A DNA stretch of 64,000 nt from an uncultured Bacilli bacterium (GCA_947629305.1 CANRDD010000001.1:6311-70310), one strand, 5' to 3'; counted from the stretch's first letter, positions 3,721 to 51,658 are shown. The notes: generated by a model from the letters alone, not told the origin. Program-made: numbers and translations.

Positions 3721-4170
3721 TTATTCTAAATTAGCCTCATCATTTTCATCTACAATCATTAAATCTGCTAAATCATCATCTTCAACATCATCTGTATCTT
3801 CATCTTTATCATAGAAAATATCTTCTTCTTCCTCATCTTCATCTATATCATCAATGACTTCATCATTAACATCATCAACAATTTCTTCATCTTCTTCCAT
3901 ATCTTCAACAACCATATTTAAATTATGTCTTGATTGTAAATCCCAATAGCCATTTTCTAACATAACAAATTTTTTATTAATAGACATTTTTTCAAAAAAA
4001 GCAATTAATTCTTCTTCATAAACACTATCTGGTAATTCTAATGCTTCACATATTTTCTTAAATATATCCTTTAAAGTCATTTTCTTTCCAGATTCTTGTA
4101 ATACAATTAAAGCAATATCATCATAACTCATTAATTCTAATTCATCTTTAGGAATATCCCTTAATTTCAT
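3721..4170 (-). CDS. rpoE: DNA-directed RNA polymerase delta subunit (HARE-HTH N-domain plus polyacidic tail)
   Basis: N-terminal SYDDIALIVLQESGKKMTLKDIF...NGYWDLQSR; Asp/Glu-rich C-terminal half; adjacent to pyrG as in B. subtilis. Confidence 0.8.
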   Translation of the reverse strand: MKLRDIPKDELELMSYDDIALIVLQESGKKMTLKDIFKKICEALELPDSVYEEELIAFFEKMSINKKFVMLENGYWDLQSRHNLNMVVEDMEEDEEIVDDVNDEVIDDIDEDEEEEDIFYDKDEDTDDVEDDDLADLMIVDENDEANLE

Positions 4171-4185
4171 TTTTATCCTTCTTTC

Positions 4186-5790
4186 TTACATTTTTTCAGG
4201 AGGTATAACCCCAATTAAATTTAACGCATTAAAGATGGTAATTTGTACCCCTTTAATTAAATTTAATCTTTCCAAAGTTTCTTCTTCATTATCTGTTAAT
4301 ATCCTTATTTGTTGATAATAATTATGAAATAATGTTGCTAGTTCATAAACATAATTAACAATTAAATGAGGTAATTCCTTTAAAGCAGCCATTTTAACTA
4401 CATCTGGGAATTCATAAACTTTTTCTAAAACATTATATGTTATTTCTTCATTTAATGCAACATATTTTGTAATATTTTTAGATAACTCTTTTTCTTTTAA
4501 TATAGAACATATTCTTGCATAAGCATAACTAACGTAATATACAGGGTTTTCATTAGACTTAGCTTTAGCTAAATTAAGATCAAAATCCATTTGAGTATCT
4601 AAACTATATTTAGCAAAATAATAACGAGCAGCATTAACCCCAACTTCAGCAATTAATTCTTTTAAAGTAACGGATTTACCTGTTCTTTTACTCATTTTAA
4701 CAACTTCACCATTTTCGACTAAACGAACTAATTGTAATAATTTAACTTCTAAAAGATCAGGATCATTACCTAAGGCTTTAACACTACTTTTAAGACGAGC
4801 CACATAACCATGATGATCAGTTCCTAATATATCAATAATTTTTGTATAACCTCTTTTATATTTATCATAATGATAGGCTATATCTGGTACTAAATAAGTA
4901 AGACTTCCATCTTCTTTAATTAATACATGATCTTTATCATCATAAATACTACTACATTTAAACCAAGTAGCTCCATCTTGTTTATATATATATCCATTTT
5001 TATCTAATTTATTAATTATTTCATAAGGATCATATTCTTTTCTAATCTCTTTTTCACTCGTTAATTTATCATATTCTATTCGATATTCTTTTAAATCATC
5101 TAATATTTTATTTAATAATTCTTTTATACCTAATTCTTTAAAAAATTCTAAATCTTTATCTAATGCTTTATCTTGATATTCATTATAAATTTTTGTAGCT
5201 AATTCTTTTATTTCTGAACCAAAATAGCCACCTTCTGGCATTTCTTCTTTAATCCCACATAATTCCTTATAACGACAAAGAATTGATAAACCTAAGTTAT
5301 TAATTTGATTACCTGCATCATTAACATAATATTCTTTGGTAACATCATATCCAGAAAAAGCCATGATTCGAGCTAAAGAATCACCATAAGCTCCTCCTCT
5401 AGCATTACCTAAATGTAATATTCCCGTTGGATTAGCACTAACAAATTCAATATTAACTTTTTGCCCTTCTCCTATATTACTTCGACCATAATTTTCTTTT
5501 TCTTCTAATACTTTATTTAAATTTGTAAATAAATAATCTTTGCGAACAAAAAAATTAATAAATCCAGGTTCTTTTACTTCTATCTTTATAATATCTTCAT
5601 CATTTATTTTATCTTTAATCCATAAAGCTATATCCATTGGTTTTTGTTTAAATATACTAGCAAGTTTCATGGCAATATTACTGGCATAATCCCCATGAGA
5701 TGCATCTTTACTCTTTGTTACTTCTACATCTATATCTATACCTTTTTCTTTTATTACTTCTTTTATTATATTTATTAATTTATCTTTCAT
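4186..5790 (-). CDS. argS: Arginine--tRNA ligase
   Basis: PTGILHLGNARGGAYGDSLARIM (class I HIGH region of ArgRS); KMSKRTGKSV; DALR anticodon-binding C-terminus; 534 aa. Confidence 0.9.
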   Translation of the reverse strand: MKDKLINIIKEVIKEKGIDIDVEVTKSKDASHGDYASNIAMKLASIFKQKPMDIALWIKDKINDEDIIKIEVKEPGFINFFVRKDYLFTNLNKVLEEKENYGRSNIGEGQKVNIEFVSANPTGILHLGNARGGAYGDSLARIMAFSGYDVTKEYYVNDAGNQINNLGLSILCRYKELCGIKEEMPEGGYFGSEIKELATKIYNEYQDKALDKDLEFFKELGIKELLNKILDDLKEYRIEYDKLTSEKEIRKEYDPYEIINKLDKNGYIYKQDGATWFKCSSIYDDKDHVLIKEDGSLTYLVPDIAYHYDKYKRGYTKIIDILGTDHHGYVARLKSSVKALGNDPDLLEVKLLQLVRLVENGEVVKMSKRTGKSVTLKELIAEVGVNAARYYFAKYSLDTQMDFDLNLAKAKSNENPVYYVSYAYARICSILKEKELSKNITKYVALNEEITYNVLEKVYEFPDVVKMAALKELPHLIVNYVYELATLFHNYYQQIRILTDNEEETLERLNLIKGVQITIFNALNLIGVIPPEKM

Positions 5791-6156
5791 TTAGACATCT
5801 TTCCTTTGAATAATTAAAGTTTTTATATCATCATCAAAATTATACTTTAATTTTATTTCCTTATTATTATCTACATATTCACATTCTATATCAATATCAC
5901 AACTTTCCCCATTTAAAAAGATAAAACTCCCTATTTTTTTCTTAAAATCAATAATCATTTTATATTCTTTTGTTATTCTTTGATATATTTTATTTTCCCT
6001 ATCAATAATTTGTTTAGGTTCTTCATCAATAACTATTTGGGAATTATCAAAACTAGTTAATAAATCATTTTGCCAAACTATTTGTTCATTACTTAATAGT
6101 TTCCAACTAACCATTTCTTTCAAAAGACAAGTTCCTCCCTTGTTTTTCGAGAACAA
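5791..6156 (-). CDS. Hypothetical protein (possibly DUF1934-like, position conserved upstream of argS in Firmicutes)
   Basis: ORF abutting argS start (1 bp gap); no recognisable motif; call based on position only. Confidence 0.3.
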   Translation of the reverse strand: MFSKNKGGTCLLKEMVSWKLLSNEQIVWQNDLLTSFDNSQIVIDEEPKQIIDRENKIYQRITKEYKMIIDFKKKIGSFIFLNGESCDIDIECEYVDNNKEIKLKYNFDDDIKTLIIQRKDV

Positions 6157-6250
6157 TTATAGCATGATATATTTTACTTGTAAACTAAAAAATTTCTTAT
6201 ATTAAAAAGAATACTATTATTTATTACTTAAATAGTATTCTTAATTATTA

Positions 6251-9200
6251 TTAATCTTTTTTTAAAGTTAATACTTTATTATCATCAGTTGCTATATCTA
6301 TCATAGTATCTAAAAAAACATTTATATTATCTTTATATATTAATAATACTTTTCTTGTTACATCTATTACTTCCGCGGGTTCTATATTTAAAAAGGATGA
6401 GATAGATTCCGTGGAAAAACATTTACCATCTATATATCCTAATTTTAAAGCAATAATAACCGCTTCTTTAACTGATAAAGTACTCATCATTTGCGTAAAT
6501 GATGGAGCTCTTAATAATTCTAATAATTTTAAAGAATCTTCTCTTGTCATCTCTATCTTTGTAAATTTTGATTCTATTTTAGGTTCTGTTTTAGATATTA
6601 AATCCCCATTTACTTGTTCTGTTTGAGACAATTCATTCTTAATCCTATTTTCTCTTTCCTTAGTTGAATTTTCTAATAACCTGCGCATTTTCGGTACTAA
6701 CGTATTATAAAACTTAGCACTTAATGTTCTATTTAATTTTGTTGAAACATGTTTATTTAAATCATCTCCATAACGAAGTCTTAATAATTCTTGATCATTT
6801 TCATTTAATTTGGTTAACATTTCATCTATTTGTTCTTTAGAATAATCTTCAAAATATTCATATATTGTTTTTATTGGTCCTTCTTTGGTAGGATTTTCTA
6901 ATAATCTGCGCATTCTTGGTACTAACATATTATAAAATTTATTACTTTGTTCTTTATTTAATTTGGTTGAAATAGGATTATTTAAATCATTACCATAACG
7001 AAGTTTTAATATTTCTTTTTCTTCTTCATTTAATTTGGTTAACATTTCATCTATTTGTTCTTTAGAATAATCTTCAAAATATTCATATATTGTTTTTATT
7101 GATCCTTCTTTAGTTGGATTTTCTAATAATCTTCGCATTCTTGGTAATAATGTACCATAAAATTTAATACTTTGTTCTTTATTTAATTCTGTTGAAATAG
7201 GCTTATTTAAATCATTACCATAACGAAGAGTCAACATTTCTTTTTCTTCTTCATTTAATTTGGTTAACATTTCATCTATTTGTTCTCTAGTATATGTTCC
7301 AAAATATTCATATATTGTCTTTATTTTTCGCACTTTTTCTTTTTTCCTTTCAACTATTTTTTCTTCATTTCCATTTATTTTTGATTCAGTTTCTATTCTT
7401 TTACTTTTATTTTTTCCTTTTCTTTCTTTTGTTGGATTCTTTAGTAATCGCTTCATTCGAGGAATTAATATATTATAAAATTTTATGCTTTGATCTTTAG
7501 TTAATTTTGTTGAAACAGGATTATTTAAATCTGCTCCATACCTAAGTCTTATTAATTCTTGATCTTCTTCATTTAATTTTAATATCACTTCATCTACTTC
7601 TTCTTTAGGATAGTCTTCAAAAAGTTCATATATTGTTTTTATTGTTCCTTCTCTAGTAGGATTTTCTAATAATCTTCGCATTCGAGAAATTAATAAACTA
7701 TAAAATTTTGTACTTTGGTCATTATTTAATTCTGTTAAAGCTGGATTATTTAAATCTTCTCCATAACGGAGCTTTAATATCTCTTTTTCTTCTTCATTTA
7801 ATCTTGTTATTACTTCATCTACTTGTTCTTTGGTATATGTTCCAAAATGTTCATATATTGTTTTTATTCTTCGAGGTTGTTCAGTTACATTCTCTTTCAT
7901 TTTTAAGCTATTTTCTTTTAAAGTAGCCCTTTTAGGATTATCTGTTTCTCTATAAATTGTTCTATATTTATCTATATTTTTTAAAGATAAATCGGGATAA
8001 GGTGTATATAAAGCTAAATCTTTAACATATTTTGACCATCTAATACGCATCAAAGCTGTGGCTTCAATTTGTTGGATTCTTTGTCTAGTTAAATGATATT
8101 TTTTACTTATTTCATTAAAAGTCATAGGTTTTTGATTATCAAACCCACATCGCATCTTTAATACTTCTATTTCCATTGGTTTCAAATTACAATTATCAAA
8201 TAAGTTTTGCACTATATCCGGCAAAGATTCATTTATAATTATTTCTTCAGGAGTCTCAGTTGAACTTGGTATTAAATTTTCTAACTCCGTGTCCTCTTCA
8301 TCATTAACAAAATTATTAATACTTACTGTATCAACTTGCAAATTAGATAATTCTGAAACAAATGAAACAGATAATCCCATTTCCTTAGCTATTTCATTTA
8401 TAGTTGGATTTCTACCTAATTTTTCTTCCAATTTAGTTATTGTTTTTTTATATAATGCTATCTTTTCATGCAAGTGCACGGGTATTCTTACATTTCGACC
8501 TTTATCCGCGATAGATCTAGTTATAGCTTGTCTTATCCACCATGTAGCATAGGTTGAAAATTTATAATTTTTATTTAAATCAAATCTATCTACCGCGGTC
8601 ATTAAACCAATGTTACCTTCTTGAACAAGATCTAAGAAAGAAAGGCCCCTTCCATAATATTTTCTAGCTATACTAATTACTAATCTTAAATTACTTTCAA
8701 TAAATAATTTTCTCGCATTATAATCACCTAGAGCCATTTTATTAAGAAGATCTTTTTCTTGTTCATCTGTGAGAAGTGGTCTTTTCCCAACTTCCCTAAA
8801 ATACATATCTGTGGCACTCATAACACCTAAATATTCTTCATCATAGGCATTTTCATTTACATTTTCTAATTCATTTATGTCAATATTATTTAACATACAA
8901 TATGTATCTATAATTGACTCTAATAAATTATCATTAAATTGTTCATCTACATTACCAGATTTTAATTGTTTATAATATTCTTTAAATACAACTATAATCA
9001 TTTTATTAAAAATACTATTTTCATTTATAAGTTTAATTAATAAATCTATACTTGGAACATAATTATAACTTTCTAAAAATCTACTTAATTTTTTAAAATT
9101 TTTGATTGCTCCTTCATAATTTTCTATTTTTATAAATTTTTGATTTATATAATTATTTAATAATATAAATGATTGATTTGCATCTAAAAGCATATTTTTA

Positions 9201-9433
9201 GTAATTTTAGCTATTTTAATTTTAATTTGTTTATTTATATATTCATTATAATTTGGTACACCTTTATATGTTTTTTTAGAAATATCAATTTCATTTAAAA
9301 CTAATTTTTCATAATCTTCCCTCGAAATATTTAAATACTTTGTCGATATATATATTTTATTAATAACAGGCATAATTATTTCATATATTTGTTTTGAATC
9401 TAATTCTTGAATATTATATAAATTTAATTCCAT
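6251..9433 (-). CDS. RpoD-family (group 1/2, SigA-like) sigma factor with unusual ~200-aa N-terminal domain and ~450-aa C-terminal extension of five tandem ~75-aa degenerate region-4-like repeats plus a terminal region-4-like domain
   Basis: Region 1.2 ([12 protein letters not shown]); region 2 ([17 protein letters not shown]...[19 protein letters not shown]); region 3; region 4.2 ([30 protein letters not shown]); then repeats [71 protein letters not shown] x5; C-terminal [45 protein letters not shown]. Confidence 0.85.
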
Positions 9434-9458
9434 TTATTTTCTCCTGTTCTAAAGATTA

Positions 9459-11006
9459 TTAATCTTTTTTTAAAGTTAATACTTTTTCTTTTCTTTTTTC
9501 TTCTGTAGCTATTTCTATTACATTATCTAAAAAACTATTTAATAATACTTTCTTTGTTATATCTATTACTTCTTCTGGTTCTATATTTAAAAAGGCCGAG
9601 ATAGATTTCGTGGAAAAACACCTGCCATCAATATACCCTAATCTTAAAGCTATAACTACGGCTTCTTTAACAGATAAAATCTTCATCAATTGAGCAAAGG
9701 ATGGTGCTTTTACTAAATCGATTAACTTCAAACAGTCTTCTTTAGTTATTTCAATATTATTAGTTTCTGATACTGTTTCTTTTTGCCCTAATTCTTCTTT
9801 AATTTCTAAAACTGGTTTCTTAACTTCTTTTTTAATTCTTTGTGTTCTTTTTCCTGTTGGATTTTCTAATAACTTCTTCATTCTTGGTACTAATACACTA
9901 TAAAATTTATTACTTTCTTCCTTAGTGAGTTTTGTTAAAACATGCTCATTTAAATCATCACCATACCTAAGTCTTATTAATTTCTTATCTTCTTCACTTA
10001 ATTTACTTAACATTTCATCTACTTGTTCTTTAGAATAATTATTAAAATGTTCATATATTGTTTTTAATTTTATTAAATTTGTATTTGGGTTTTTTAATAA
10101 TCTTTTCATTTTAGTTGCTAATAACCCATAGAATTTATAACTTTGTTCTTCTGTTAAATTGGTTGAAGATGAAATATTTAAATCTTCGCCAAAACGAAGT
10201 CTGATTAATTTCATCTCTTCTCCATTTAATTTTGTTAACATTTCATCTATTTGTTCTTTAGAATAATTTCCAAAATATTCATATATTGTATTAGCATTTC
10301 GTCTTTTTCTTTTGCCACTTTCAATTATATCTAATTCTATTATATCTTTATCCCTTAATTTTTCTCTTAATTCCTTAACTGTCTTGATAATTATTCGGGA
10401 AACATATGACTGAGAAATGTTTAACATCTCGGCAATTTCCTTTTGGTTATAAGTCCGATTATTATAAAAACCAAAATGAAGTTTAATGATTTTTTTACTT
10501 TTATCTGGTAATTCATTTATTAATTCTCTTAAAACTTGATAAAGATTAGATGTTTCATTATTATCTATATAATCACCTGCGAAGTCTTTACCATCACTAA
10601 GATAATCTTCCAACTTAATTTTACTACCATCACGATTTTGAAAAATAACTTTATCTAAACTTTCAATTTTCTTATCTTTATCTAATTTTCTTAAAAACAT
10701 TATTATTTCATTATCAATACATCTAGAAGCATAAGAAGAAAATCTAATATTTTTTGATATATCAAAAGTATCAACAGCTTTAAATAACCCTAAAATACCT
10801 ATAGATACTAATTCTTTTTTTTCATAATCAACTGTTTTAAATTTATTTGTTACTTCATATAAAACTAATCTAGTATTATGTTCTATTATTTTATTTCTTG
10901 CTTCATTATCACCATTTTGGGCTTGTTGAAGCAAATCACAAAATTCTTCATCAGATAATAATTTAGGTAATTTATGTCCATCTATAAATATTTCTTCTGT
11001 ACTCAT
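9459..11006 (-). CDS. SigE/SigK-family (sporulation-type, group 3) sigma factor paralog with C-terminal extension of two region-4-like repeats plus the same terminal domain as the upstream sigma
   Basis: LSDEEFCDLLQQAQNGDNEARNKIIEHNTRLVLYEVTNKF (region 2, SigK/E/G-like); YASRCIDNEIIMFLRKL; region 4 IIKLHFGFYNNRTYNQKEIAEMLNISQSYVSRII; then [22 protein letters not shown]...LIRLRFGEDLN repeats; C-terminus ~70% identical to that of the 1060-aa protein (both end VLTLKKD). Confidence 0.8.
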   Translation of the reverse strand: MSTEEIFIDGHKLPKLLSDEEFCDLLQQAQNGDNEARNKIIEHNTRLVLYEVTNKFKTVDYEKKELVSIGILGLFKAVDTFDISKNIRFSSYASRCIDNEIIMFLRKLDKDKKIESLDKVIFQNRDGSKIKLEDYLSDGKDFAGDYIDNNETSNLYQVLRELINELPDKSKKIIKLHFGFYNNRTYNQKEIAEMLNISQSYVSRIIIKTVKELREKLRDKDIIELDIIESGKRKRRNANTIYEYFGNYSKEQIDEMLTKLNGEEMKLIRLRFGEDLNISSSTNLTEEQSYKFYGLLATKMKRLLKNPNTNLIKLKTIYEHFNNYSKEQVDEMLSKLSEEDKKLIRLRYGDDLNEHVLTKLTKEESNKFYSVLVPRMKKLLENPTGKRTQRIKKEVKKPVLEIKEELGQKETVSETNNIEITKEDCLKLIDLVKAPSFAQLMKILSVKEAVVIALRLGYIDGRCFSTKSISAFLNIEPEEVIDITKKVLLNSFLDNVIEIATEEKRKEKVLTLKKD

Positions 11007-11038
11007 ACTGATTCTCCTTATCTTTAGAAGAAGTATAT

Positions 11039-13684
11039 TTATTTCTTTTTTGGTAATAAAGATAAAACTAATTCCATATTATTATCATCTTTTCGATATT
11101 GATAAAATCTTTTATTTTTTCTTACTTCTTCTAATATTTTCTTTGTTTTTTCACTCTTATTTTTACTTTTTTCAACTGAATTTAAAAATATATCTCCTTT
11201 ATCATTAATTCCTTGCATATAAAATTCTCTTGCATAAATAAGTTTAATAATATTTGCCTCTTCTAAGGTTAAACCTAATTGCAGAGATGCTGTTTCAACA
11301 TCTAATCCTGATTCAATAATAAAGTCATTTATTTTTGGAAAATTAAAACCATAATAATTAACTAACTTATTATAATCAAAATCTTCTTCAAGCATTTTAA
11401 AGATAGGTTTTCGATCTTCTACATCTATTTCCCCTTTTAATGCCATGATAAGATCTTGATAATCATAAGGCAAATTTTCTTGTTTTGCTAAGCTATTGGC
11501 CACAGTTAAATATTCTATTGCTATTTTCTTTTGATATTTTTTCGTATAAGCAAAACCTAATTTAGCATAGACAATGGCTCGAGGACTTTTAAACATTTGT
11601 AGTAATTGTAAATATTTTTCTATGCATTCATTATAATTTCCTTCACTATAAGCTTTATTTCCTAAATTTATAAGTTCTTTACCATTAACATATCCTTGAA
11701 TTTTTGGTTTATATCTTAAAACTACTTGTTGTTCATTACCTTCACCAATTACAAAAGCAACCATATCCTTATAATTTTCCATCATATCCATTATTCTCTT
11801 AATTTTATTTTCAGGCATAGGATTTAATAAGATAATACTTTTTTTAACAAGTAATTCCGCATATTTTTTATCTATATATTTTTTTAAATTATCTTTTTCA
11901 GGAATCATTTCTTCTTTAGGTATTTCTGTTCTTTGTTCTTGAACTTGAATTTTTTCCTCTTGAGGTAACAAAACTTCTTCTTTTTCTTTCTTTGGTTCTT
12001 CTTTAATAGTAGGTTTTTGAATTCTAGTTCTTTCTTCTTTTTCTTTCTTTGGCTCTACTTTAGAAGCAAAATTTGGCAAACTAGCTCCATCCTTTTTTTG
12101 ATTATTTTCTAAAGCTATATTAAATATTTCTAATTCTTTATTATTTTGCTTATTATCTAACATTTTTTCTGATATTTCTAATATTTGATATAATCCATCT
12201 GTGATAACACAGTCTTGACCTAACTTATTACCTTTAGTAATTATATCTAAATAAACTCTTGCTTCAGCCAATTTATCTTGAGATAACTTAATATAAAATT
12301 CTTGAATATAGGTTGCTATATCAAAAGAATAATTATCTTTACTAACTAAAGTTAAGGCCATCATTGGTTTGGTAAAAGTAATATCTTTTTCTAATAAACT
12401 AATTTTAATTAAATCAATAATTAAAAATTCATAATCACTTTTATTTAAACTATTTAAATAAGTTCTTAAGAATTTTAAAGAATTTTCTAAATCACCTTTC
12501 ATTAAATATGTAATAATATTTGCCAAAGAAGGATCAGCCTTTTTTATTGTTGGTTCAGCTTCCTTAACCTTATTTTCTTTAACTGGATTATTTTCGAAAA
12601 TAGGCTTAGTTTTTTCCCTTAATTCTTGATTAGAATTATTTTCCAAGTTATTAATTGAACTTGTTTTTTGTTCCTTTTTAGCACTTTTTCTTATATTATT
12701 ACAACTATTAACTATTTCGACAAGTAACAAATAAATTGAATCATCATTACTAACCTTAAATTTAGCATTCTTTTTCTTAATTAAATCTAAAGCTAATTCA
12801 TAATTTTGGCCATCAATTGCATTAAAAAAATCATTAGTATTATATTCTTGAATTTCAGGAATAATTTTTGTTTTATTAATATTTAATAAATCTTTTGTTA
12901 AAATATAAACATAACTTTCGGAAATACTTAAACGATGCGAAGCTTCTCTTTTTTTATAAAAATCTATTATATCTTGATATTGTTTTTGTTTAATTAAATT
13001 TATGATTTCCTTTCGATTTTTATTTTGAACATCAAGGGCTTGGATAAGTAAATTCTTAATTAATAAATCTTGAACTTTAATAGATCCTTTATCTCGAATT
13101 AATTCATTTAATTGAAGAAGAGCTAATGAAAATCTTTGATTAAGAGCTGACAACCTCATTTTATTTTGCTTAGGTATATTCTCATATCTTTTATCATTAT
13201 AATCGACTCTAATATCATCATATTCTAAATATTTAGCATATTCTTGATATTTTTCAGGAATATCCGTGATCATATTTAATAAGTATAAATAATAATTACA
13301 ATCTATATTATAAAATTCATTTTCACTATCTTGAAAAATATCATAATAGACAAAAGCTTTCTTGTAATCTTTCTCATTAATACATTTTAAAAATAAACGA
13401 AAAGCTACCCCTTTGTGGCGTGGATCTAATTCAAAACATTTTTGAAAACATAAATCAGCTTTAGCATATTCTTTTTGAGCAATTAAAGTCTTTCCATAAT
13501 AAAATAAGTCATCTACTGATTTTAAAGAATATAAACCTCTTCTAACTCTTATAATTTTTTCTTGATCAATTAAATCTTTTAAATCTTTAGAATTAAAACC
13601 AAGACTATTTAATTCTTTAGTTGTTAATTCTTTTTCTTCTAAAACATTATTATATAATTTAGTTAAACTTTCTTCATTAATCAT
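11039..13684 (-). CDS. Large TPR-repeat protein with N-terminal AbiEi-like winged-helix DNA-binding domain
   Basis: N-terminus LTTKELNSLGFNSKDLKDLIDQEKIIRVRRGLYSL matches AbiEi_4-type wHTH signature (...RxRRGxY); multiple TPR-like helical repeats (e.g. YYGKTLIAQKEYAKADLCFQKCFELDP, LGNKAYSEGNYNECIEKYLQLLQM); Lys/Glu-rich linker; 4-bp overlap with upstream gene. Confidence 0.55.
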   Translation of the reverse strand: MINEESLTKLYNNVLEEKELTTKELNSLGFNSKDLKDLIDQEKIIRVRRGLYSLKSVDDLFYYGKTLIAQKEYAKADLCFQKCFELDPRHKGVAFRLFLKCINEKDYKKAFVYYDIFQDSENEFYNIDCNYYLYLLNMITDIPEKYQEYAKYLEYDDIRVDYNDKRYENIPKQNKMRLSALNQRFSLALLQLNELIRDKGSIKVQDLLIKNLLIQALDVQNKNRKEIINLIKQKQYQDIIDFYKKREASHRLSISESYVYILTKDLLNINKTKIIPEIQEYNTNDFFNAIDGQNYELALDLIKKKNAKFKVSNDDSIYLLLVEIVNSCNNIRKSAKKEQKTSSINNLENNSNQELREKTKPIFENNPVKENKVKEAEPTIKKADPSLANIITYLMKGDLENSLKFLRTYLNSLNKSDYEFLIIDLIKISLLEKDITFTKPMMALTLVSKDNYSFDIATYIQEFYIKLSQDKLAEARVYLDIITKGNKLGQDCVITDGLYQILEISEKMLDNKQNNKELEIFNIALENNQKKDGASLPNFASKVEPKKEKEERTRIQKPTIKEEPKKEKEEVLLPQEEKIQVQEQRTEIPKEEMIPEKDNLKKYIDKKYAELLVKKSIILLNPMPENKIKRIMDMMENYKDMVAFVIGEGNEQQVVLRYKPKIQGYVNGKELINLGNKAYSEGNYNECIEKYLQLLQMFKSPRAIVYAKLGFAYTKKYQKKIAIEYLTVANSLAKQENLPYDYQDLIMALKGEIDVEDRKPIFKMLEEDFDYNKLVNYYGFNFPKINDFIIESGLDVETASLQLGLTLEEANIIKLIYAREFYMQGINDKGDIFLNSVEKSKNKSEKTKKILEEVRKNKRFYQYRKDDNNMELVLSLLPKKK

Positions 13685-14682
13685 TTCTTTATTCCTCCCT
13701 TTAACCTTTTTAATTTTATTTGTTCATTTTTGGAAAAACCTTCTTTATCAAATTCATTTGATAAAGATACAGGATACATGGTAATAATATCTTTTGTTCC
13801 AAGCATCGTAACTACACATAAATCATTTGTAATTGTCTCATTTTTATAACCAATTGGTGTATCTAATCTAAATCGGTACATATCTGATACTTCAAAATGA
13901 TTTGCATTCATATTTTCAATTATTACTCTTGCATCTAATAATAATTTCTTTAAATCAAGATATTTAAAGAAACAACCATTGGTATTCTTTTCTTCTTGGT
14001 TTTGATGTTTTGCTATATGGAATAATAATAATTCTTCACTATGATCATATAATCTATATATCATATAATCTTTTTCTTTATCATAATTATTATCTAATAA
14101 CTTTAATTTTCCTAAATAATATTTTATATAATTATTTAAAATATCATAATGTTGTGTTAACTTTGGAGTTAAAGAAGACCTATCAATTTTCATAATATAT
14201 TGTTCAGCTTGATAAAAATCTTTTTCAAGTATTTTTAAACAAATTAAGCCTTTAGTTGCTTGAATATAAAACTTAGGATTTAATTGCAAAGTTTGATACA
14301 TTCTCTCAGCAATAGAATAATCACCAGTTTGCACATTAAGTTTAGCTAAAGCCATAAGAGCTTTATATTGTAATTCTGGGGAAGTCATACATTCCCTATA
14401 ATATTTTTTACTTTGTTCAAAATTATTTTCAATATTTTCTAATAAGCCATATAATAATTTAAATATAGGTTTATCTTGATCAGGATTATTATTTAATATT
14501 TCTCTAGCTTTTGCATATTTACCTTCTCTAAGTTCAATTTGAATAAGTTTTGTTAAAGACTGAACTCTAAAACCATCATGTTGATAAGATATATTAAACC
14601 AATATCTAGCATTTATATAATCATTAGTATTATAATATTCTAATCCTTTAAAAAAGGCTTCTTTTAAATCTTTATTTGTCAT
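13681..14682 (-). CDS. TPR-repeat protein (Rap/RRNPP-like size, 333 aa)
   Basis: Repeated TPR-like helices (FFKGLEYYNTNDYINARYWF, KALMALAKLNVQTGDYSIAERMYQ); translationally coupled (4-bp overlaps) on both sides. Confidence 0.5.
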   Translation of the reverse strand: MTNKDLKEAFFKGLEYYNTNDYINARYWFNISYQHDGFRVQSLTKLIQIELREGKYAKAREILNNNPDQDKPIFKLLYGLLENIENNFEQSKKYYRECMTSPELQYKALMALAKLNVQTGDYSIAERMYQTLQLNPKFYIQATKGLICLKILEKDFYQAEQYIMKIDRSSLTPKLTQHYDILNNYIKYYLGKLKLLDNNYDKEKDYMIYRLYDHSEELLLFHIAKHQNQEEKNTNGCFFKYLDLKKLLLDARVIIENMNANHFEVSDMYRFRLDTPIGYKNETITNDLCVVTMLGTKDIITMYPVSLSNEFDKEGFSKNEQIKLKRLKGGIKK

Positions 14683-15680
14683 CTTTTTAAAACCCGACTT
14701 AAATTTTCATAATATCCTTGATCATTAACTGAGGATAAATCCTGTACTTTTCCTTGATAATCATTTAAACAAAGACCATCAGGTGTAAAATAACATATTT
14801 GACAACATTTCATATCCGGATAAATTTTTAAAGGCATTGTTGTTTTAAGACCTAAATGCCAGTATCCTTTGTAGCCAGTGGAACCTAAGCCAGCTGAACA
14901 ATGGACATGTTCACCAAGTCTTCCTAAAGAACTTCGGCCATTTAAAACTGGGATTAAATTATAAGTTTCTGTCCATTCATTAGTTCTAGCCATATATATT
15001 TCATCAGGATATAAATAAAAACCATTGTCATTAATTTCTACTTCTTCAATAGGATTATTCTTTTTTAAATCTAAAACATTATCCCTAAAAAAAGCTATTC
15101 TTTTATTTAAAGTTAAATTAACAGAATTAGGATTAATAACAATATTATCTTTATTGGAAATAATAATATCTCCTTGTTCCATTCTCTTCATTATTTCTTT
15201 CCCACTTAACATACCTATATCTAAAGAATTATCTAAACTTCTAAAAAAAGCTAAATTACCTATTTCCATATTAGGATAAATATAAATAGGTTTAGTACAA
15301 GTAATACATAATAATAAATAATCATTAAAATGATCATCTTTATATTCATTATTAAGACTAATACTAATTCCAAGTAATGATAATGATACTTTGCCATTTA
15401 GAAAAGGAACAAAACCATTGGTTTTAACTTTTTGTTCTGTTTGGGCTAAATAAACTTTACCAGGTTCTAATAAAAAACCAGATTTAGGTATTTTTTCTTC
15501 TTTTAAACCATGGGTATAACCATTTTTAGTATCGACTAAATAATCATCTTCTTGATAATAAAGAGTATCACCTAAATTAAGACGACAACTATTAGGTTTA
15601 TCTAAAGAATTATCTTTTAAATTAGTTATTTCAATATGACCTAAAGCCATTTGTTTTTTTATTTCTTCATTTGTTAACAT
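14679..15680 (-). CDS. Tandem two-domain dCTP deaminase/dUTPase-fold protein (Dcd-Dcd fusion) with degenerate catalytic residues
   Basis: Both halves start with a Dcd N-terminal signature (LTNEEIKKQMALGHIEI...; LSGKEIMKRMEQGDIII...). Second half retains GRSSLGRLG (Ser/Ser/Arg motif) but has HLGL where the catalytic VLEF Glu is expected. First half lacks both motifs. Confidence 0.6.
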   Translation of the reverse strand: MLTNEEIKKQMALGHIEITNLKDNSLDKPNSCRLNLGDTLYYQEDDYLVDTKNGYTHGLKEEKIPKSGFLLEPGKVYLAQTEQKVKTNGFVPFLNGKVSLSLLGISISLNNEYKDDHFNDYLLLCITCTKPIYIYPNMEIGNLAFFRSLDNSLDIGMLSGKEIMKRMEQGDIIISNKDNIVINPNSVNLTLNKRIAFFRDNVLDLKKNNPIEEVEINDNGFYLYPDEIYMARTNEWTETYNLIPVLNGRSSLGRLGEHVHCSAGLGSTGYKGYWHLGLKTTMPLKIYPDMKCCQICYFTPDGLCLNDYQGKVQDLSSVNDQGYYENLSRVLKR

Positions 15681-15681
15681 A

Positions 15682-16218
15682 TTACTTTCTTCTTTCTAAT
15701 TTAGGAACATATTCTCTTTCAATCCGTGATTCTGTGGCTTTAACTTGTCCTAAATATTTACCCTTATATTCAATAGAATTATCCCCGATTAAAGGAAAAT
15801 AATATAAACGGCCGATAGGCATATTAGGATAAACTTTGGTTGGATAAGTGCAAACAATTTCAAGTGTCCATGTTCCTTCAAAACCATGATCACCAAATCC
15901 CGCGGTTACATGAATTTCCATGCCAAGAGCAGCTAGCTTATCAATACCACCTAGTAAAGGAACAAAATTATAAGTTTTAGTATATTCATTGGTTCTCCCT
16001 AAATATAATTTACCTGGCTCTAAAACTAAACCTTCTTCAGGAATAAGAATTTTTTGGGTAGGATTACTTTTCTTAATATCTAAAAAGGGTTCAGTATATA
16101 CTTTTAAATCATTAGCAAGTGTTACATTAAGATAATTTTCTCCTAACGTATCTTCATTTACTTTATAAATATCGATATTATGAGGATAATTAGCTATTAT
16201 TTCATTTCTACTTAACAT
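15682..16218 (-). CDS. dcd: dCTP deaminase (single dUTPase-fold domain)
   Basis: IHVTAGFGDHGFEGTWTLEIVCTYPTKVYPNMPIGRLYYF matches the Dcd core including the catalytic Glu (TLEI); the SSxR motif is replaced (GGIDKLAALG); 178 aa. Confidence 0.65.
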   Translation of the reverse strand: MLSRNEIIANYPHNIDIYKVNEDTLGENYLNVTLANDLKVYTEPFLDIKKSNPTQKILIPEEGLVLEPGKLYLGRTNEYTKTYNFVPLLGGIDKLAALGMEIHVTAGFGDHGFEGTWTLEIVCTYPTKVYPNMPIGRLYYFPLIGDNSIEYKGKYLGQVKATESRIEREYVPKLERRK

Positions 16219-16232
16219 AATTATTACTTCCT

Positions 16233-17420
16233 TTAAATCTTTCTGGTTAAAGATATACCTTCTTTAAATTTACATTCAGATGGACAAGTAAAATTAGGAA
16301 ATGTACAACGAGATCCATGCGAATATTTAACTAATTCCGCATATATTTTTTGATCATTAGGGCTTTTTGATGCCTTTAAAGTATTAACATATTTTGTTAA
16401 TACTTCTTTTGTAATTTGCATAACTTCTAACTGAGGTGCTGTACAAATTCTTTCAAATAATTTTAAAATAAAATCTTCATATTTACCTGTTTCATTAACA
16501 TTTACGAGTAACCCTTGAGGATAATCCGATAAACTTGATATATCTTTTAACCATTCTTGGGATAAATAATCATTATCTCTAATAATAATTGGTACATAAT
16601 ATTCTTTTGTTTCTTTTAATGATAAAGAATAATCTAAAGTTCTATGTCTTAATAAATCGGCTAAAGCAACAAATGTCGCATCATAATTGACTGAGTAACT
16701 CCGGCTAAAGTGATCATCATAAGTATTATCATCTTGAATTAAAGAAAAATGTCTATTACGATAATCTTTAATATCTTGATCAATAAAACCTGTACTTAAT
16801 AAAGCCTTTTGAAACTCTTTTAAATAAGGCTTTAATTCTTGAATTAAAGGATTATTTGTATCTTCATTTAACATTTTAATTGTAAAATCATAAATATAAT
16901 TTAATTGTCTAAATGATGTTGTATATTTTAATTTAGTTCGCATAAATACTGACAACAAATAACGGGCATTTTCTTTAGCTTTTTTATCTATCATAGCTGG
17001 AGTTAAATAAACATTATCAGGATAAACCTTAGTTATTTCTTCTTTAAATATTTTATGCCATTTACGATATAATTCATTTTCTTCTTCTGTTCCAAACATT
17101 GTTGTATAACGTCCTGATTTTTCCGAAGTATTATATTCATGTTCATTATTAATCATCATCGCTAATAACTTGGGAATATTTTCAAAATATATTTGAATTG
17201 TATCATGCCCAAAGACCGAATGATGTCTATTTTTTTTATTACCATCTGCCCTATTTAACGTTTTTTCAATTGGTTCTTTTAATATTTCATCATAATTTTT
17301 AGCCGTATAACAAATATTTGCTGAATGTCCCCCGTTGATTTCTAAATCTTTTAAACTAGTTTCCTTGATTATTTCTTCATCTGTTGTAGTTATACCTACT
17401 ACTTTTGCATTTATTTCCAT
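16233..17420 (-). CDS. ThyX-like (flavin-dependent thymidylate synthase family) divergent paralog. RHR motif not conserved. Extra ~170-aa C-terminal region
   Basis: Alignable to the ThyX core: HHSVFGHD (cf. GHETPFEH) ... NNEHEYNTSEKSGRY (cf. FRHRIASYNELSGRY). SGRY is conserved but RHR reads NEH. Likely start MEINAKVVG at 17420 with GGAGG RBS; longer ORF to 17492 is possible. Confidence 0.5.
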   Translation of the reverse strand: MEINAKVVGITTTDEEIIKETSLKDLEINGGHSANICYTAKNYDEILKEPIEKTLNRADGNKKNRHHSVFGHDTIQIYFENIPKLLAMMINNEHEYNTSEKSGRYTTMFGTEEENELYRKWHKIFKEEITKVYPDNVYLTPAMIDKKAKENARYLLSVFMRTKLKYTTSFRQLNYIYDFTIKMLNEDTNNPLIQELKPYLKEFQKALLSTGFIDQDIKDYRNRHFSLIQDDNTYDDHFSRSYSVNYDATFVALADLLRHRTLDYSLSLKETKEYYVPIIIRDNDYLSQEWLKDISSLSDYPQGLLVNVNETGKYEDFILKLFERICTAPQLEVMQITKEVLTKYVNTLKASKSPNDQKIYAELVKYSHGSRCTFPNFTCPSECKFKEGISLTRKI

Positions 17421-17546
17421 TATTCCTCCCATAGCCCCCTTTTTAGTTCTAAATCTACTTAAAATTTTATCAAATATATCACTAAAAATCAATTCCCTTA
17501 GGAATTTTTTTCCAAAACTATTCCATAATAAAAAAGGTGATATCTT

Positions 17547-19505
17547 TTGAAAATACTAAAATTTCTAATTAAATCTTTTATCTTTTTATTTATATCTATG
17601 GTTGTTGTTATAATTGGTTTATATACTTATGCTTATTTAAGTCCTAAATTAGATTTAAAAAAATCAGGTAGTTTATATATTTATGATCAAAATAATAGTT
17701 TAATATATCAAGGATCTAGTTCTAATGAATGGGTTGATATAGAAAATATAAGTCCTTATTTAAAAGAAGCTATTATTTCAGTTGAAGATAAAAATTTTTA
17801 TAATCATCATGGTTTTGATTATTTAAGAATAGCTAAAGCAATGTATTTAAATATTAAAAATAAAGCTATTGTTCAAGGAGCTTCAACTATTTCTCAACAA
17901 TATATTAAAAATTTATATTTAGATTTTAATCAAACTTGGAAAAGAAAAATAGAAGAAGCTTTTTTAACTTTAGAATTAGAAGTACATTATGATAAAGATG
18001 AAATATTAGAAGGTTATTTAAATACCATTAATTATGGTCAAGGTAATTTAGGTATTGTTAATGCTTCTAGTTATTATTTTAATAAAAAAGCAAGTGATTT
18101 ATCTTTAGAAGAAGCTATTATGTTAGCAGGAATATCTAAGAATCCTAGTAAATATAATCCTGTTTCTAGTTATGATAATTGTATTAAAAGAGCTAAAATT
18201 GTGGCTAAAAGTATGTTAAATAATGGTTATATTGATAATGATACATATAATAATTTATTTAAAGAACAAATACCTATCTATGGCAAAACAAATGAATTAA
18301 ATCTCCAAATGCTTCTTTATTATCAAGATGCTGTCTTAAATGAATTAAATAATATTGATGTTATATCTCCATCACTTATTTCCTCAGGTGGTTTAAAAAT
18401 ATATACAACATTAGATTTAGATGCCCAAAGGAAAATGGAAGAAAGTATTTTAAATAATACAACTGATTCTGAGATTGAAGTAGCTAGCATTATTGTAGAT
18501 CCTGCAACAGGTGCTGTTAAAGCTTTAACAGGAGGCATGGATTATGCTAAAAGTCAGTTTAATAGAGCTTTAAATTCGAAAAGACAAGTTGGTTCAACCA
18601 TGAAAACATTTCTTTATTATGCGGCCTTAGAAAATAATTTAACAATGTCTAGTACTTTTGCCTCGAAACCAACAACCTTTAACTTAGCCAGTGGCAAAAC
18701 TTATTCACCTATTAATGCAAGTAATGTTTATGCCAATAAAGATATAACCATGGCCGCGGCTGTTGCTTTCTCAGATAATATTTATGCGATTAAAACTCAT
18801 TTATTTTTAGGGATGGATAAAATGATCGAAGTAGCAACAAGAACAGGTATTAAAGAAAAATTAAATCAAGTGGCTTCTCTTCCTTTAGGAACAAGTGAAA
18901 TAAATATTTTAGACTATGCCACTGGTTATACAACTTTTGCCTCCGGTGGTTATAAAAAAGATTTATATTTTATTGAAAAAATAGAAGATTTAGAAGGAAA
19001 TATTTTATATGAAAAAAAACAAGAAAAAGATTTAGTTTTAAATCCAAATTATACTTATATTTTAAATGAAATGTTAACATCAACATCAAATAGTGCTTTT
19101 ATTGATTATACAACCCCGACTGCTTTTTCTATTGCTAAAAAATTTACTCATAAATATGCCATTAAAACCGGAACCACTAATACCGACTACTGGATCGTTG
19201 GTTATAATCCTAATGCTTTAGTTATGACTTGGATGGGTTATGATGATAATAAATCGATGAATACTGAAGTCCGTAAAAGCGGAAGAAATGCCTGGGCAGA
19301 TATGATGGAAGCTTATTTAGAAAATAAAGATGTTAGTTGGTATGAAACGCCTGAGAATGTTGTTGCTCTTCCCCTTGATGCTATCAGTGGAACAGCAACA
19401 AATAACACAAGCCGAATAACTTTATTTTATTACTTAAAAGGAACAGAACCAAATTATACAGGAGAACAAACTGTTTTAGCTCCCAAAAAAGAGGATTTAG
19501 ATTAA
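17547..19505 (+). CDS. Class A penicillin-binding protein (PBP1A family: glycosyltransferase + transpeptidase)
   Basis: GT51 motifs EDKNFYNHHGFD and GASTISQQYIKN; transpeptidase SxxK (GSTMK), SxN (FSDN), KTG (KTGTT); N-terminal TM helix. Confidence 0.9.
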   Translation: MKILKFLIKSFIFLFISMVVVIIGLYTYAYLSPKLDLKKSGSLYIYDQNNSLIYQGSSSNEWVDIENISPYLKEAIISVEDKNFYNHHGFDYLRIAKAMYLNIKNKAIVQGASTISQQYIKNLYLDFNQTWKRKIEEAFLTLELEVHYDKDEILEGYLNTINYGQGNLGIVNASSYYFNKKASDLSLEEAIMLAGISKNPSKYNPVSSYDNCIKRAKIVAKSMLNNGYIDNDTYNNLFKEQIPIYGKTNELNLQMLLYYQDAVLNELNNIDVISPSLISSGGLKIYTTLDLDAQRKMEESILNNTTDSEIEVASIIVDPATGAVKALTGGMDYAKSQFNRALNSKRQVGSTMKTFLYYAALENNLTMSSTFASKPTTFNLASGKTYSPINASNVYANKDITMAAAVAFSDNIYAIKTHLFLGMDKMIEVATRTGIKEKLNQVASLPLGTSEINILDYATGYTTFASGGYKKDLYFIEKIEDLEGNILYEKKQEKDLVLNPNYTYILNEMLTSTSNSAFIDYTTPTAFSIAKKFTHKYAIKTGTTNTDYWIVGYNPNALVMTWMGYDDNKSMNTEVRKSGRNAWADMMEAYLENKDVSWYETPENVVALPLDAISGTATNNTSRITLFYYLKGTEPNYTGEQTVLAPKKEDLD

Positions 19506-20407
19506 CCTAAATTCTCTTTTTGAACATCTTTTAATTTACTTCTTACTCTTTTAACTGCATCAGTTATATTACTTAATTCTTTATTTATATCACTAAATTC
19601 TTCATTTAATATATGATAATTTCTTTGTACATTTAAATTATCTCCATCAAAATCTGCTATAATATCTGGTCCAGAATATTTCCATAAATTATCTTTATTT
19701 ATCCATATACAATGTCCATATCTACAAACACATATATCACTTAAAATACCTTTAGATATAACTAAACTATCAGGCATACTAAATCCTTTATTATCTATAG
19801 CTTTATTTTTATCACAATATGTTCTTAATTGAATATCTTTCTTTAAAAATTTTTTTAAATTTTGATATAATTCAATAATATTAATTGGTAATTCTATATT
19901 ATTTAAAAATTCATCTATTTCTAATGAACTACTATTAAAAATACTTTCATCATAAGAAGATATTATTTTTATATAATTATTTTCATTTTTAACTTTAAGA
20001 CAATAATTTTTATTTTCTTTATTATATAATTTTTCAATAATATTCCCATTCTTTTCTTTATGACTATCTAAAAACACATAATCTAAAACAATACTATCTT
20101 TATCCTTTTTATATACTATTCCTTTTGTTCTATATTTATTATTATAAATAATTTTATTTTGATCAAATTCTAAATCAAAATAAGATCCTTTTTCAGATAT
20201 ACAATTAATTATTCTATTATTATAATTTTTTTGATATATTTGCCATTTATCTTGATTATCAACATTAAAAATATTAAAAATATTTTCAAGATATTTATAA
20301 GCTAAATTTCTTTTAAGTTTATTAAATAATTTTTGTTTTAATTCACATTGTTCAAATATAGTATTAATAACTCCTTCATTTAAGATATTAAAATGATATT
20401 TTAGCAT
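19502..20407 (-). CDS. Hypothetical protein
   Basis: 301-aa ORF convergent with the PBP gene (4-bp overlap); no recognisable motifs. Confidence 0.4.
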   Translation of the reverse strand: MLKYHFNILNEGVINTIFEQCELKQKLFNKLKRNLAYKYLENIFNIFNVDNQDKWQIYQKNYNNRIINCISEKGSYFDLEFDQNKIIYNNKYRTKGIVYKKDKDSIVLDYVFLDSHKEKNGNIIEKLYNKENKNYCLKVKNENNYIKIISSYDESIFNSSSLEIDEFLNNIELPINIIELYQNLKKFLKKDIQLRTYCDKNKAIDNKGFSMPDSLVISKGILSDICVCRYGHCIWINKDNLWKYSGPDIIADFDGDNLNVQRNYHILNEEFSDINKELSNITDAVKRVRSKLKDVQKENLG

Positions 20408-40100: not shown

Positions 40101-40103
40101 AAT

Positions 40104-40182
40104 GATGTGCAACAAGGATGCTGTAAACTGGTCAGAATCGGAAGATAGCAGCCACATCAGCCTCTGCTTGTGTGCACTTTTT
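40104..40182 (+). ncRNA. ffs: Small signal recognition particle RNA (4.5S/scRNA-like, ffs/scr)
   Basis: GC-rich hairpin GTGCAACAAGG...CTGCTTGTGTGCAC. Apical region GGTCAGAATCGGAAGATAGCAGCC matches the SRP RNA domain IV consensus (GUCAGGUCCGGAAGGAAGCAGC). Ends in TTTTT. Lies in the tadA-dnaX neighbourhood where scr sits in Bacillus. Confidence 0.6.
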
Positions 40183-40195
40183 ATATGGTGATAAA

Positions 40196-49551: not shown

Positions 49552-50067
49552 TTGAAATCTACAGGTGTTACAAGAAGAATTGATGAACTTGGAAGAATTG
49601 TTATTCCCAAAGAAATTAGACGTAATTTAGGTATTAGAGATGGGGAAACATTAGAAATATATACAAGTGAGGAAGGAATATTTTTACAAAAACATTCTAT
49701 TTTACATAATTATGCTGAAATAGGAACTAAGTTATGTGAAATAATTAGTTCTGTTTTAAACATCGAAATTATTTTAACTGATCGGGAAAAAGTTATTTCT
49801 TCAACTCATAATAATCACATAATAGGTAAAAATATTCCTCCTGAATTTATTAAACTTATTGATGGAAGAGAAACTTTAAATAGTGAATTTGAAATGGCTG
49901 TTAATATTGATACTGAACAAATAAAAGGTTATTTTAATATTTGTCCTATTATCTCTTCCATTGATTCATTAGGTTTAGTTATCATTGTTAATAATAAACC
50001 AAATAATATGCAAGATATAGCTAAATTAATAGCTAAAATTATGGCTGAAAAATTAGATATATATTAA
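49552..50067 (+). CDS. spoVT: Stage V sporulation protein T (AbrB-type swapped-hairpin N-domain + GAF-like C-domain)
   Basis: MKSTGVTRRIDELGRIVIPKEIRRNLGIRDGETLEIY (AbrB/SpoVT N-domain); 171 aa; directly after mfd as in Bacillus/Clostridium; TTG start. Confidence 0.8.
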   Translation: MKSTGVTRRIDELGRIVIPKEIRRNLGIRDGETLEIYTSEEGIFLQKHSILHNYAEIGTKLCEIISSVLNIEIILTDREKVISSTHNNHIIGKNIPPEFIKLIDGRETLNSEFEMAVNIDTEQIKGYFNICPIISSIDSLGLVIIVNNKPNNMQDIAKLIAKIMAEKLDIY

Positions 50068-51609: not shown

Positions 51610-51658
51610 CCTCTTGCACAAATAAAAACTTTATGCTAAACTAAATTATAAGTTGACA

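Follow-up and report, generated by a model that had tools for sequence, protein, structure and literature searches.

A seven-gene block near the replication origin of an uncultured Bacilli bacterium: a probable composite of thymidylate-supply genes and a regulatory set with unusual sigma factors

Among sigma-70-family sigma factors, the ECF41 and ECF42 groups carry regulatory C-terminal extensions, that of ECF42 resembling tetratricopeptide repeats (TPRs), and regulators of the RRNPP type combine a helix-turn-helix (HTH) domain with TPRs. Proteins that recall both kinds of regulator are encoded, together with relatives of two enzymes of pyrimidine deoxynucleotide metabolism, ThyX and dCTP deaminase (Dcd), in a block of seven minus-strand genes within a 64,000-nucleotide (nt) stretch of DNA from an uncultured Bacilli bacterium (GCA_947629305.1, CANRDD010000001.1:6311-70310), which in its whole length we refer to as the window. 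Dcd belongs to the trimeric dUTPase-fold enzymes, in which the active site lies in the cleft between subunits and is built from the motif III that one subunit supplies and its neighbour's motifs I, II and IV, whereas the monomeric dUTPases of herpesviruses have kept only those motifs that face one site (PMC12524310; PMC4827122).

A preliminary description of this DNA had placed seven minus-strand open reading frames (ORFs) at 6251-17492, packed with 4-bp overlaps or gaps of 32 nt or less. Our ORF calls agree with both the coordinates and the packing, the junctions in transcription order being +14, +1, -4, -4, +32 and +25 nt. Profile hidden Markov model searches of Pfam, NCBIfam and PHROGs, a check for which the description itself had called, upheld every domain relationship that it had proposed. 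Comparison with other genomes leads us to lean, if only slightly, towards reading the block as a probably co-transcribed composite of two units: unit A, comprising a ThyX-like protein and a heteromeric dCTP deaminase, and unit B, comprising four regulators. Unit A would serve thymidylate supply, and the two would be distinct functional units that adjoin only in this genome.

Conservation and transcription of the block

The seven genes had initially been taken for one system. To the contrary, the neighbourhoods of their relatives in other genomes, searched by tblastn with all seven block proteins, split the block in two. No Dcd gene stood beside a ThyX-like gene at any of 80 other species' loci (0/80), and a relative of the sigma factors or of the winged helix-turn-helix (wHTH) protein lay near the ThyX-like gene in 2-4 of the 80 species (L025/26, L028, L074), which is about chance level. 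The neighbours of the ThyX-like gene were otherwise heterogeneous and, in its closest relatives, unrelated genes. Loci anchored on wHTH881, the large wHTH protein of unit B, likewise differed in their surroundings and usually kept only an upstream gene of the type of its neighbour TPR333 (L002, L004, L006, L007, L099). Because the comparative loci keep only parts of the block, its seven genes do not form one conserved unit.

The four regulatory genes fared differently. At one other locus (L099) genes for SigA-like, TPR334, wHTH851 and SigEK481 proteins are contiguous, in an order that differs from that of the window, and their products are 52%, 62%, 48% and 45% identical, respectively, to the window proteins. 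Orthologues of the two sigma factors stand in tandem in L088, both with the C-terminal domain described below, and the TPR333/wHTH881 pair was seen again in several genomes, in one of them as a fusion. These observations bear out the earlier suggestion that the two extended sigma factors and the two TPR proteins belong together.

Tight spacing by itself is the norm in this genome and not exceptional. Coding sequence takes up 94% of the window, gaps of 32 nt or less separate 23 of the 42 same-strand neighbour pairs outside the block (55%), and two further seven-gene runs composed of functionally mixed housekeeping genes (recR-holB-yaaT-methyltransferase-pth-mfd and HAD-metG-tatD-ksgA-yfhO-HTH) are equally tight. 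Such compaction could have packed at least four unrelated gene pairs together by chance, leaving even the sigma pair and the TPR/wHTH pair unlinked, and most wHTH loci do indeed lack the sigma genes, as most SigA-like loci lack a wHTH gene. We nevertheless regard a fortuitous juxtaposition as unlikely, given the reordered but contiguous regulatory genes of L099 (a rough Poisson estimate for two such cases is ~0.014), the second occurrence of the sigma tandem in L088, and the C-terminal domain that the two sigma factors share, whose coding regions have 79% nt identity and which we take as co-evolution. In addition, natural fusions among Dcd relatives make the second and third genes one unit. 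The general caution is that, in genomes that are 94% coding, overlaps and short gaps alone define no system.

One transcription unit of ~11 kb covering all seven genes is plausible: its 5' end has a promoter-like site and a strong Shine-Dalgarno sequence, its 3' end has a hairpin with a U-run, and the gaps between genes do not exceed 32 nt. The promoter-like site (TTGATT-17-TGaTAAAAT, with an extended -10; 17464-17492, minus strand) lies upstream of the ThyX-like gene and diverges from the gene for a penicillin-binding protein (PBP); it is a consensus match only, in AT-rich DNA in which 127 such matches were found and 136 were expected from shuffled sequence. The terminator-like hairpin (6202-6242, minus strand) begins 9 nt past the stop codon of the last gene and has a perfect, AT-rich 12-bp stem, a 12-nt loop and a UUUUU tract. 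It is weak (-10.7 kcal/mol, z = -1.9) and was missed by the consensus scan because its stem holds just two G-C pairs; scans for intrinsic-terminator and promoter consensus sequences were uninformative in the AT-rich DNA of this window. Each gene of the block has a Shine-Dalgarno-like sequence of its own except TPR333, which uses an ATGA overlap.

The preliminary description had also raised a role in defence or in transcription takeover, for instance with phage-derived logic. One integrated seven-gene system of this kind, derived from a phage or an island and coupling RNA polymerase specificity to the deoxynucleoside triphosphate pool, appears improbable to us. It would accord with the probable single transcript; with loci in which the ThyX-like gene stands beside a wHTH gene (L074) or near a SigA-like gene (L028); with a conserved tyrosine recombinase that precedes the TPR/wHTH genes in L002, L074 and L099 and is itself preceded in L099 by small HTH genes; with the occurrence of the long ThyX family on large viral contigs (94-268 kb), in some cases together with a Dcd gene; and with the resemblance of the wHTH to AbiEi and of the sigma core to MzaA. 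However, Dcd genes were never near ThyX-like genes or regulators at other loci, the adjacency of ThyX-like genes to regulators does not exceed the chance level given above, and the recombinases of L002 and L099 (72% identical) are about as conserved as TPR333 (67%), which fits vertical inheritance. Neither did the resemblances to defence proteins extend beyond generic sigma and wHTH domains in PADLOC, with no Mza or AbiEii partners. The sigma-70 core aligns with MzaA of the MZA system (NCBIfam 291 bits against a cut-off of 800; PADLOC E = 3e-50), but it is the generic core alone that does so, MzaB-E genes are lacking, and no other Mza match occurred among nine proteins, the seven of the block and the two flanking it. 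Matches to AbiE were confined to a wHTH of ~40 residues (PADLOC E = 6e-8; Pfam below the gathering score), and no gene for an AbiEii nucleotidyltransferase stands beside wHTH881.

A mobile origin found as little support. Neither INPHARED nor IMG/VR contains relatives of the regulators wHTH881 and TPR333 or of the sigma C-terminus; among the proteins scanned against IMG/VR, the ThyX-like family alone had viral relatives. Direct or inverted repeats of at least 14 nt are absent from the borders of the block, as are tRNA genes, and its GC content is 24.4%, compared with 25.5% outside. Of the signatures of a prophage or island (integrase, att repeats, compositional shift, phage relatives of the regulators), none was found in the window. 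With generic PADLOC domains, no phage relatives of the regulators and no island signatures, the defence or takeover reading could not be upheld.

PADLOC, applied to the seven block proteins with two flanking ORFs and to the seven L099 proteins outside the four-gene set, returned generic-domain matches only. In tblastn against 50,697 phage records, the ThyX-like protein and the sigma C-terminus had no match, and Dcd2_333, the larger Dcd protein of the block, had distant Dcd matches only.

A putative thymidylate-supply unit

The second and third genes encode Dcd-fold proteins. Dcd178 (15682-16218, minus strand) is a single Dcd-fold domain that keeps motif III, the catalytic glutamate (AGFGDHGFEGTWTLE) and the C-terminal KY.GQ...SR lid, but its phosphate-binding GRSS..R motif has given way to GGIDKLAALG. 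Dcd2_333 (14679-15680, minus strand) has two such domains. Its N-terminal domain (~15216-15680) has lost both motifs. The C-terminal domain (~14679-15215) keeps GRSSLGRLG, while the motif III aspartate is replaced by serine and the catalytic glutamate by glycine (WHLGL). Both proteins pass the Pfam DCD threshold, with one domain in Dcd178 and two in Dcd2_333; against the TIGR02274 dCTP deaminase profile (cut-off 92.8), Dcd2_333 scores 124.8 when summed over its two domains and Dcd178 scores 60.7. The best solved relatives of the window proteins are the bifunctional DCD-DUT enzymes of Mycobacterium tuberculosis and Methanocaldococcus jannaschii.

In no single domain, then, does GRSS..R occur together with motif III and the catalytic glutamate (TLE), and the full set is assembled only across both proteins. 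Single-domain Dcd relatives (L092-L094), by comparison, carry the full G[RK]SS.GRLG...AGFGD.GFKG.WTLE signature. Among relatives recovered by an exhaustive search, the same complementary retention of motifs recurs in diverged two-domain proteins, and in two single-chain fusions of three domains (P0383, 532 aa; P0384, 549 aa) the domain order equals the gene order seen here and the motif pattern is the same. The complementary motif losses, together with these natural fusions, argue for a dCTP deaminase that is a pseudo-trimer and has a single active site. In the simplest reading it would be a 1+2 pseudo-trimer whose one complete site forms at the interface of Dcd178 with the C-terminal domain of Dcd2_333. 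Dcd178 would provide motif III, the catalytic glutamate and the C-terminal lid, the C-terminal domain of Dcd2_333 would provide the phosphate-binding motif II, and the N-terminal domain of Dcd2_333 would be structural only. The earlier view of the Dcd and ThyX-like proteins as mere pseudo-enzymes is not sustained, since the Dcd losses are complementary and conserved, as for one working heteromer. If so, the pair is a clean natural case of subunit sub-functionalisation in a trimeric enzyme, with complementary half-sites in an arrangement supported by natural fusions.

Another two-domain Dcd relative, P0457, has the reverse order: its first domain keeps GRSS and its second keeps motif III and the glutamate. 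Its arrangement points to more than one origin of sub-functionalisation among Dcd domains.

The first gene of the block encodes a long-form ThyX-like protein of 395 aa (16233-17420, minus strand), in which a Thy1-like N-terminal half is followed by a C-terminal extension with four invariant cysteines. The preliminary description was right about the presence of this gene but probably not about its start. Its ORF can be extended to a TTG at 17492, which falls within the promoter-like site; ATG 17420 is most likely the start, because it has GGAGG 6 nt upstream and because 395 aa is also the length recorded for an NCBI-sourced family member on a 71,431-bp contig. Pfam Thy1 matches residues 57-199 only (46.7 bits against a threshold of 24.8), the score against the NCBIfam thyX equivalog TIGR02170 is 26.4 where the cut-off is 87.9, and solved ThyX structures match at E ~0.01 only. 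In the family alignment HHSV, NNE.EY.TSEKS.RY, ENARY, QRH (its R nearly invariant) and C326, C372, C379 and C383 are invariant, the cysteines following the pattern ERxC...RC..x..C..xC. The canonical ThyX motif RHRxxSxxxxSxR is thus altered in every member, with NNE in place of RHR, although S.RY is kept.

This long family, to which loci L008-L087 and L100-L116 belong, returned 2816 matches and is carried by at least 584 GTDB species in Clostridia and Bacilli; in public records it goes under the name 'FAD-dependent thymidylate synthase'. Its commonest neighbour is the thymidylate kinase gene tmk (15 of 80 loci), and the gene otherwise usually stands alone. Relatives with the cysteine motifs kept were found on 17 IMG/VR contigs, the near-full-length ones on contigs of 45-268 kb, and a Dcd-like gene lies upstream of the long ThyX-like gene on 3 of the 17. 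We regard the protein as a divergent enzyme, putatively one of FAD-dependent dUMP methylation, a role for which the tmk neighbourhood provides contextual support. The heteromeric Dcd would then turn dCTP into dUTP or dUMP for the ThyX-like enzyme. Should the chemistry of this RHR-less family with four cysteines (Cys4) differ from that of ThyX, thymidylate synthesis in many Clostridia and Bacilli has been mis-described.

Sigma factors with extra region-4-like domains and their TPR-containing neighbours

The last two genes of the block encode sigma factors of different classes that share an unusual C-terminus. SigEK515 (9459-11006, minus strand) has a sigma-E/K-like sigma2-sigma4 core in residues 1-225, followed by two repeats that resemble region 4.1 (nt 9855-10289) and, at the C-terminus, by another sigma4-like domain (nt 9462-9755). 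Its regions 2 and 4 match SigK and SigE best, at scores below the equivalogs (183 against 252 for the SigK subfamily, 171 against 339 for SigE). It has no pro-sequence, starting six residues ahead of the mature-type FIDGHKLP motif; a homologue in a related genome (L025), 37% identical, does bear one. SigA1060 (6251-9433, minus strand) consists of a novel helical N-terminal domain (residues 1-200), sigma regions 1.2-4 (208-474), five 75-aa repeats that again resemble region 4.1 (nt 6656-7867) and a C-terminal domain that is a second sigma4-like one (nt 6254-6568). All four Pfam models (r1_2, r2, r3, r4) score above threshold, and the protein is RpoD-like. The N-terminal 200 residues are unrelated to region 1.1 and have no match in Pfam or among PDB sequences.

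Over their last 280 residues the two sigma factors are 59% identical, and a shared C-terminal domain of ~105 residues follows the repeat array in each. A profile of this domain matches solved sigma region 4 over its full length, including region 4.1 and the HTH of region 4.2 (1tty, E = 1e-5), and by eye the residues that usually contact the -35 element are replaced in its alignment. The repeat profile matches region 4.1 only (KEQ..D.L..L...E...L.LR(F/Y)G). In an AlphaFold2 model of SigA1060 (predicted local distance difference test score, pLDDT, 70), each repeat is a small helical unit and the C-terminal domain is a three-helix HTH. The SigA-like family comprises ~28 clusters of 589-1256 aa, all with the N-terminal domain and the C-terminal domain, and some with a TPR-like tail at the C-terminus. 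Members of the sigma family have between 0 and 5 repeats, and none lacks the C-terminal domain; the SigEK orthologue of L088 (383 aa), for example, has the domain and no repeats, and that of L099 (481 aa) has the domain and one repeat. The current classification includes no sigma factors with a duplicate of their own region 4. Those seen here, of two classes and encoded beside a conserved TPR/wHTH scaffold, would represent a new way to regulate or retarget RNA polymerase in a large uncultured gut lineage.

The 225-bp repeats within SigA1060 are 82-88% identical at the DNA level (6656-7872), and the other public copies of this cluster are fragments on short contigs. The copy number of five is provisional, because the repeats are similar, the sequence comes from a metagenome-assembled genome (MAG) and the other copies are fragmentary; the array breaks short-read assemblies and may be hypervariable. 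Separately, some SigA-like family members of 884-1256 aa (P0284-P0286, P0290, and L090 at 3802-7572) have a long repeat array past the second sigma4 domain, made of 'KYEDAIEEAKKHPNNE...' units with weak TPR/BTAD matches.

Could SigA1060 simply be the housekeeping sigma factor of this lineage, with the cluster as core transcription machinery under lineage-specific decoration? Its regions 1.2-4 are complete and bear a group-1 signature, the family consensus keeps TRERVRQIE in region 4.2, and the 64-kb window contains no other primary-type sigma factor. Yet it falls well short of each RpoD equivalog cut-off (293 against 572 with PRK09210, the Firmicute model, and 303 against 354 with RpoD_Cterm), its N-terminus is unlike region 1.1, the window copy reads TRQRIQQ in region 4.2, and dnaG adjoins the SigA-like gene at none of seven loci (0/7). 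The small number of clusters and their widely varying architecture also speak against such a role, which we consider improbable.

The remaining two genes of unit B lie between the Dcd pair and the sigma factors. TPR333 (13681-14682, minus strand) overlaps the gene on either side by 4 bp (ATGA) and has an N-terminal TPR half, with weak TPR matches, and a C-terminal domain of ~125 aa (13684-14064) that has no match in Pfam or among PDB sequences. This C-terminal domain is 73-78% identical in six other genomes in which the wHTH protein is 44-60% identical. In L004 it forms a 127-aa ORF of its own that overlaps the start of the wHTH gene, and in P0012/L007 an in-frame fusion joins it to the wHTH protein. 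The protein wHTH881 (11039-13684, minus strand) starts with a winged helix (residues 4-54), continues with TPR-like solenoids (58-343 and 387-530) and an R3H-like alpha/beta domain (596-660), and has in addition two disordered linkers and a TPR and helical C-terminus. It matches an AbiEi_4-type wHTH and TPR_2. At least 161 full-length relatives exist; identity ranges from 40% to 62% over the 120 listed, many of them with an R3H match. A fold search with its AlphaFold2 model (mean pLDDT 78) returned only generic TPR scaffolds, among them Ctr9, IFT and APC. From these features we infer a nucleic-acid-binding TPR scaffold with the C-terminal domain of TPR333 as an obligatory small partner, and TPR333 and wHTH881, whose translation is coupled here and which one genome has as a fusion, would form one complex.

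The tyrosine recombinase genes mentioned above lie just upstream of the TPR/wHTH genes (within L002, 4799-8848; L099, 5186-9744; L074, 8514-9609), and their products are 72-81% identical. In L002 and L099 the recombinase is accompanied by two predicted membrane proteins and Amidoligase_2, with GGACT as well in L099, where small HTH_3 and HTH_26 genes stand ahead of it. In L074 the recombinase stands alone ahead of the ThyX-like and wHTH genes. This region may be an island or may reflect conserved synteny.

Taken together, unit B would be a lineage-specific set of four genes, TPR333, wHTH881 and two alternative sigma factors, of which one would derive from sigma-E/K without a pro-sequence and the other would be group-1/2-like with a novel N-terminal domain. 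The C-terminal module common to both could act as a shared regulatory handle that docks a partner, mimics true region 4 or binds DNA, and the TPR/wHTH scaffold would control both sigma factors through it. More tentatively, we propose an undescribed transcription-control system of spore-former-like, low-GC gut Bacilli in which the scaffold switches both sigma factors by way of the extra sigma4; in this genome the transcript, by carrying the Dcd pair and the ThyX-like gene as well, would tie thymidylate supply to the switch.

Several points weigh against the composite reading as a whole. All four regulatory genes were found together in one other genome only (L099), and at most loci the pairs lie apart. 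Because the ThyX-like gene adjoins a wHTH gene in L074 and lies near a SigA-like gene in L028, there may be a link between units A and B that the division into two passes over. Co-transcription is read from gene spacing and weak signals, the Dcd heteromer is deduced from sequence, and enzyme activity of the ThyX-like protein is putative, in view of its missing canonical RHR and its score below the NCBIfam thyX cut-off. Contact of the TPR/wHTH proteins with the sigma factors is likewise conjectural, and the TPR extension of the sigma-TPR fusions is not detectably homologous to TPR333 or wHTH881.

Genomic setting and comparison with known systems

The window is a replication-origin region of ~25% GC, with dnaA, dnaN, recF, gyrB and gyrA on the plus strand from ~30.1 kb and, elsewhere on the minus strand, rnpA, yidC, jag, mnmE, mnmG, rsmG and parB/noc. 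Proteins identical to those of the window are encoded on a 71,431-bp NCBI MAG contig. The closest relatives of the bacterium are uncultured gut 'Bacilli' MAGs. Sporulation-type genes occur in the window (a SpoVT-like gene after mfd, 49552-50067) and in relatives (yabP/yabQ-like ORFs identified by eye in L091, 1178-1803; a pro-SigK/E-like sigma in L025, 11187-11879; a SigG-like sigma adjoining a PRC-barrel gene in L089, 8831-9860), from which the lineage is probably a spore-former or a descendant of one.

Close to the block, a separate, strong promoter-like site (TTTACA-17-TGnTATAAT, 6184-6156) lies ahead of a small ORF and argS. The small ORF (121 aa, 5791-6156) has no Shine-Dalgarno sequence and no family match, and its TTG start falls on the -10 of this site; translation probably begins at a more internal position, or the ORF may not be a gene. 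A T-box was looked for ahead of argS and none was found, the sole T-box leader of the window being at 51650-51834, upstream of the HAD-metG gene run. On the other side of the block, between the PBP gene and parB/noc, a 301-aa ORF (19502-20407) lies where the window is richest in AT (18% GC) and has no family match in Pfam, PHROGs, NCBIfam or PADLOC. Further along, the signal recognition particle RNA (40101-40186) overlaps the predicted GTG start (40172) of a tadA-like deaminase ORF, and because of this overlap the start is probably mispredicted.

Within a limited literature search we found no description of this gene set, in line with the preliminary description, and nothing relevant on a heteromeric Dcd, a cysteine-rich ThyX or a duplicated sigma region 4. 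What is new here is not a seven-gene system but sigma factors that duplicate region 4 beside a TPR/wHTH scaffold, a predicted pseudo-trimeric Dcd with a single site, and a Cys4 ThyX family that lacks RHR.

Each of these has a nearest known counterpart. The homotrimeric dCTP deaminase and DCD-DUT enzymes (PDB 2qxx, 1ogh, 1xs1) have the same fold and motifs (Pfam DCD), but here three different domains with complementary losses are predicted to form one active site per pseudo-trimer instead of three. In this respect the Dcd pair is closer to the monomeric dUTPases of herpesviruses and the single-chain pseudo-heterotrimeric dUTPase of Drosophila virilis, in which duplicated dUTPase-fold domains keep the motifs of only one shared site (PMC12524310). 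Those enzymes are of eukaryotes or their viruses, whereas the present pair comes from a bacterium, falls in the Dcd branch and is divided 1+2 between two coupled genes. A Dcd gene beside a thymidylate-synthase-type gene (ThyX), as here, is also found in the haloarchaeal viruses HF1 and HF2. The ThyX-like protein resembles ThyX (PF02511, TIGR02170) in its Thy1-matching N-terminal half and in its HxSxxxH, E..S.RY and ENARY-type elements of the dUMP site, and differs in having NNE for RHR and an extra domain of ~130 aa that holds the four invariant cysteines.

Among the regulators, wHTH881 shares with RRNPP-type proteins and AbiEi antitoxins an N-terminal (w)HTH followed by TPRs, and with the latter a weak AbiEi_4 match. 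It is three times larger, however, has an R3H-like domain, long disordered linkers and the C-terminal domain of TPR333 as its apparently obligatory small partner, and has no AbiEii toxin or peptide gene nearby. The two sigma factors have canonical sigma2-sigma4 cores in common with ECF41 and ECF42, primary SigA and SigE/SigK, and resemble ECF41 and ECF42 in their conserved extra C-terminus, which in some members includes a TPR-like tail as in ECF42. Unlike those groups they are not ECF sigma factors; their extension consists of copies of their own region 4 (a second sigma4 and 0-5 region-4.1 half-units), and it is common to two sigma classes that are encoded side by side.

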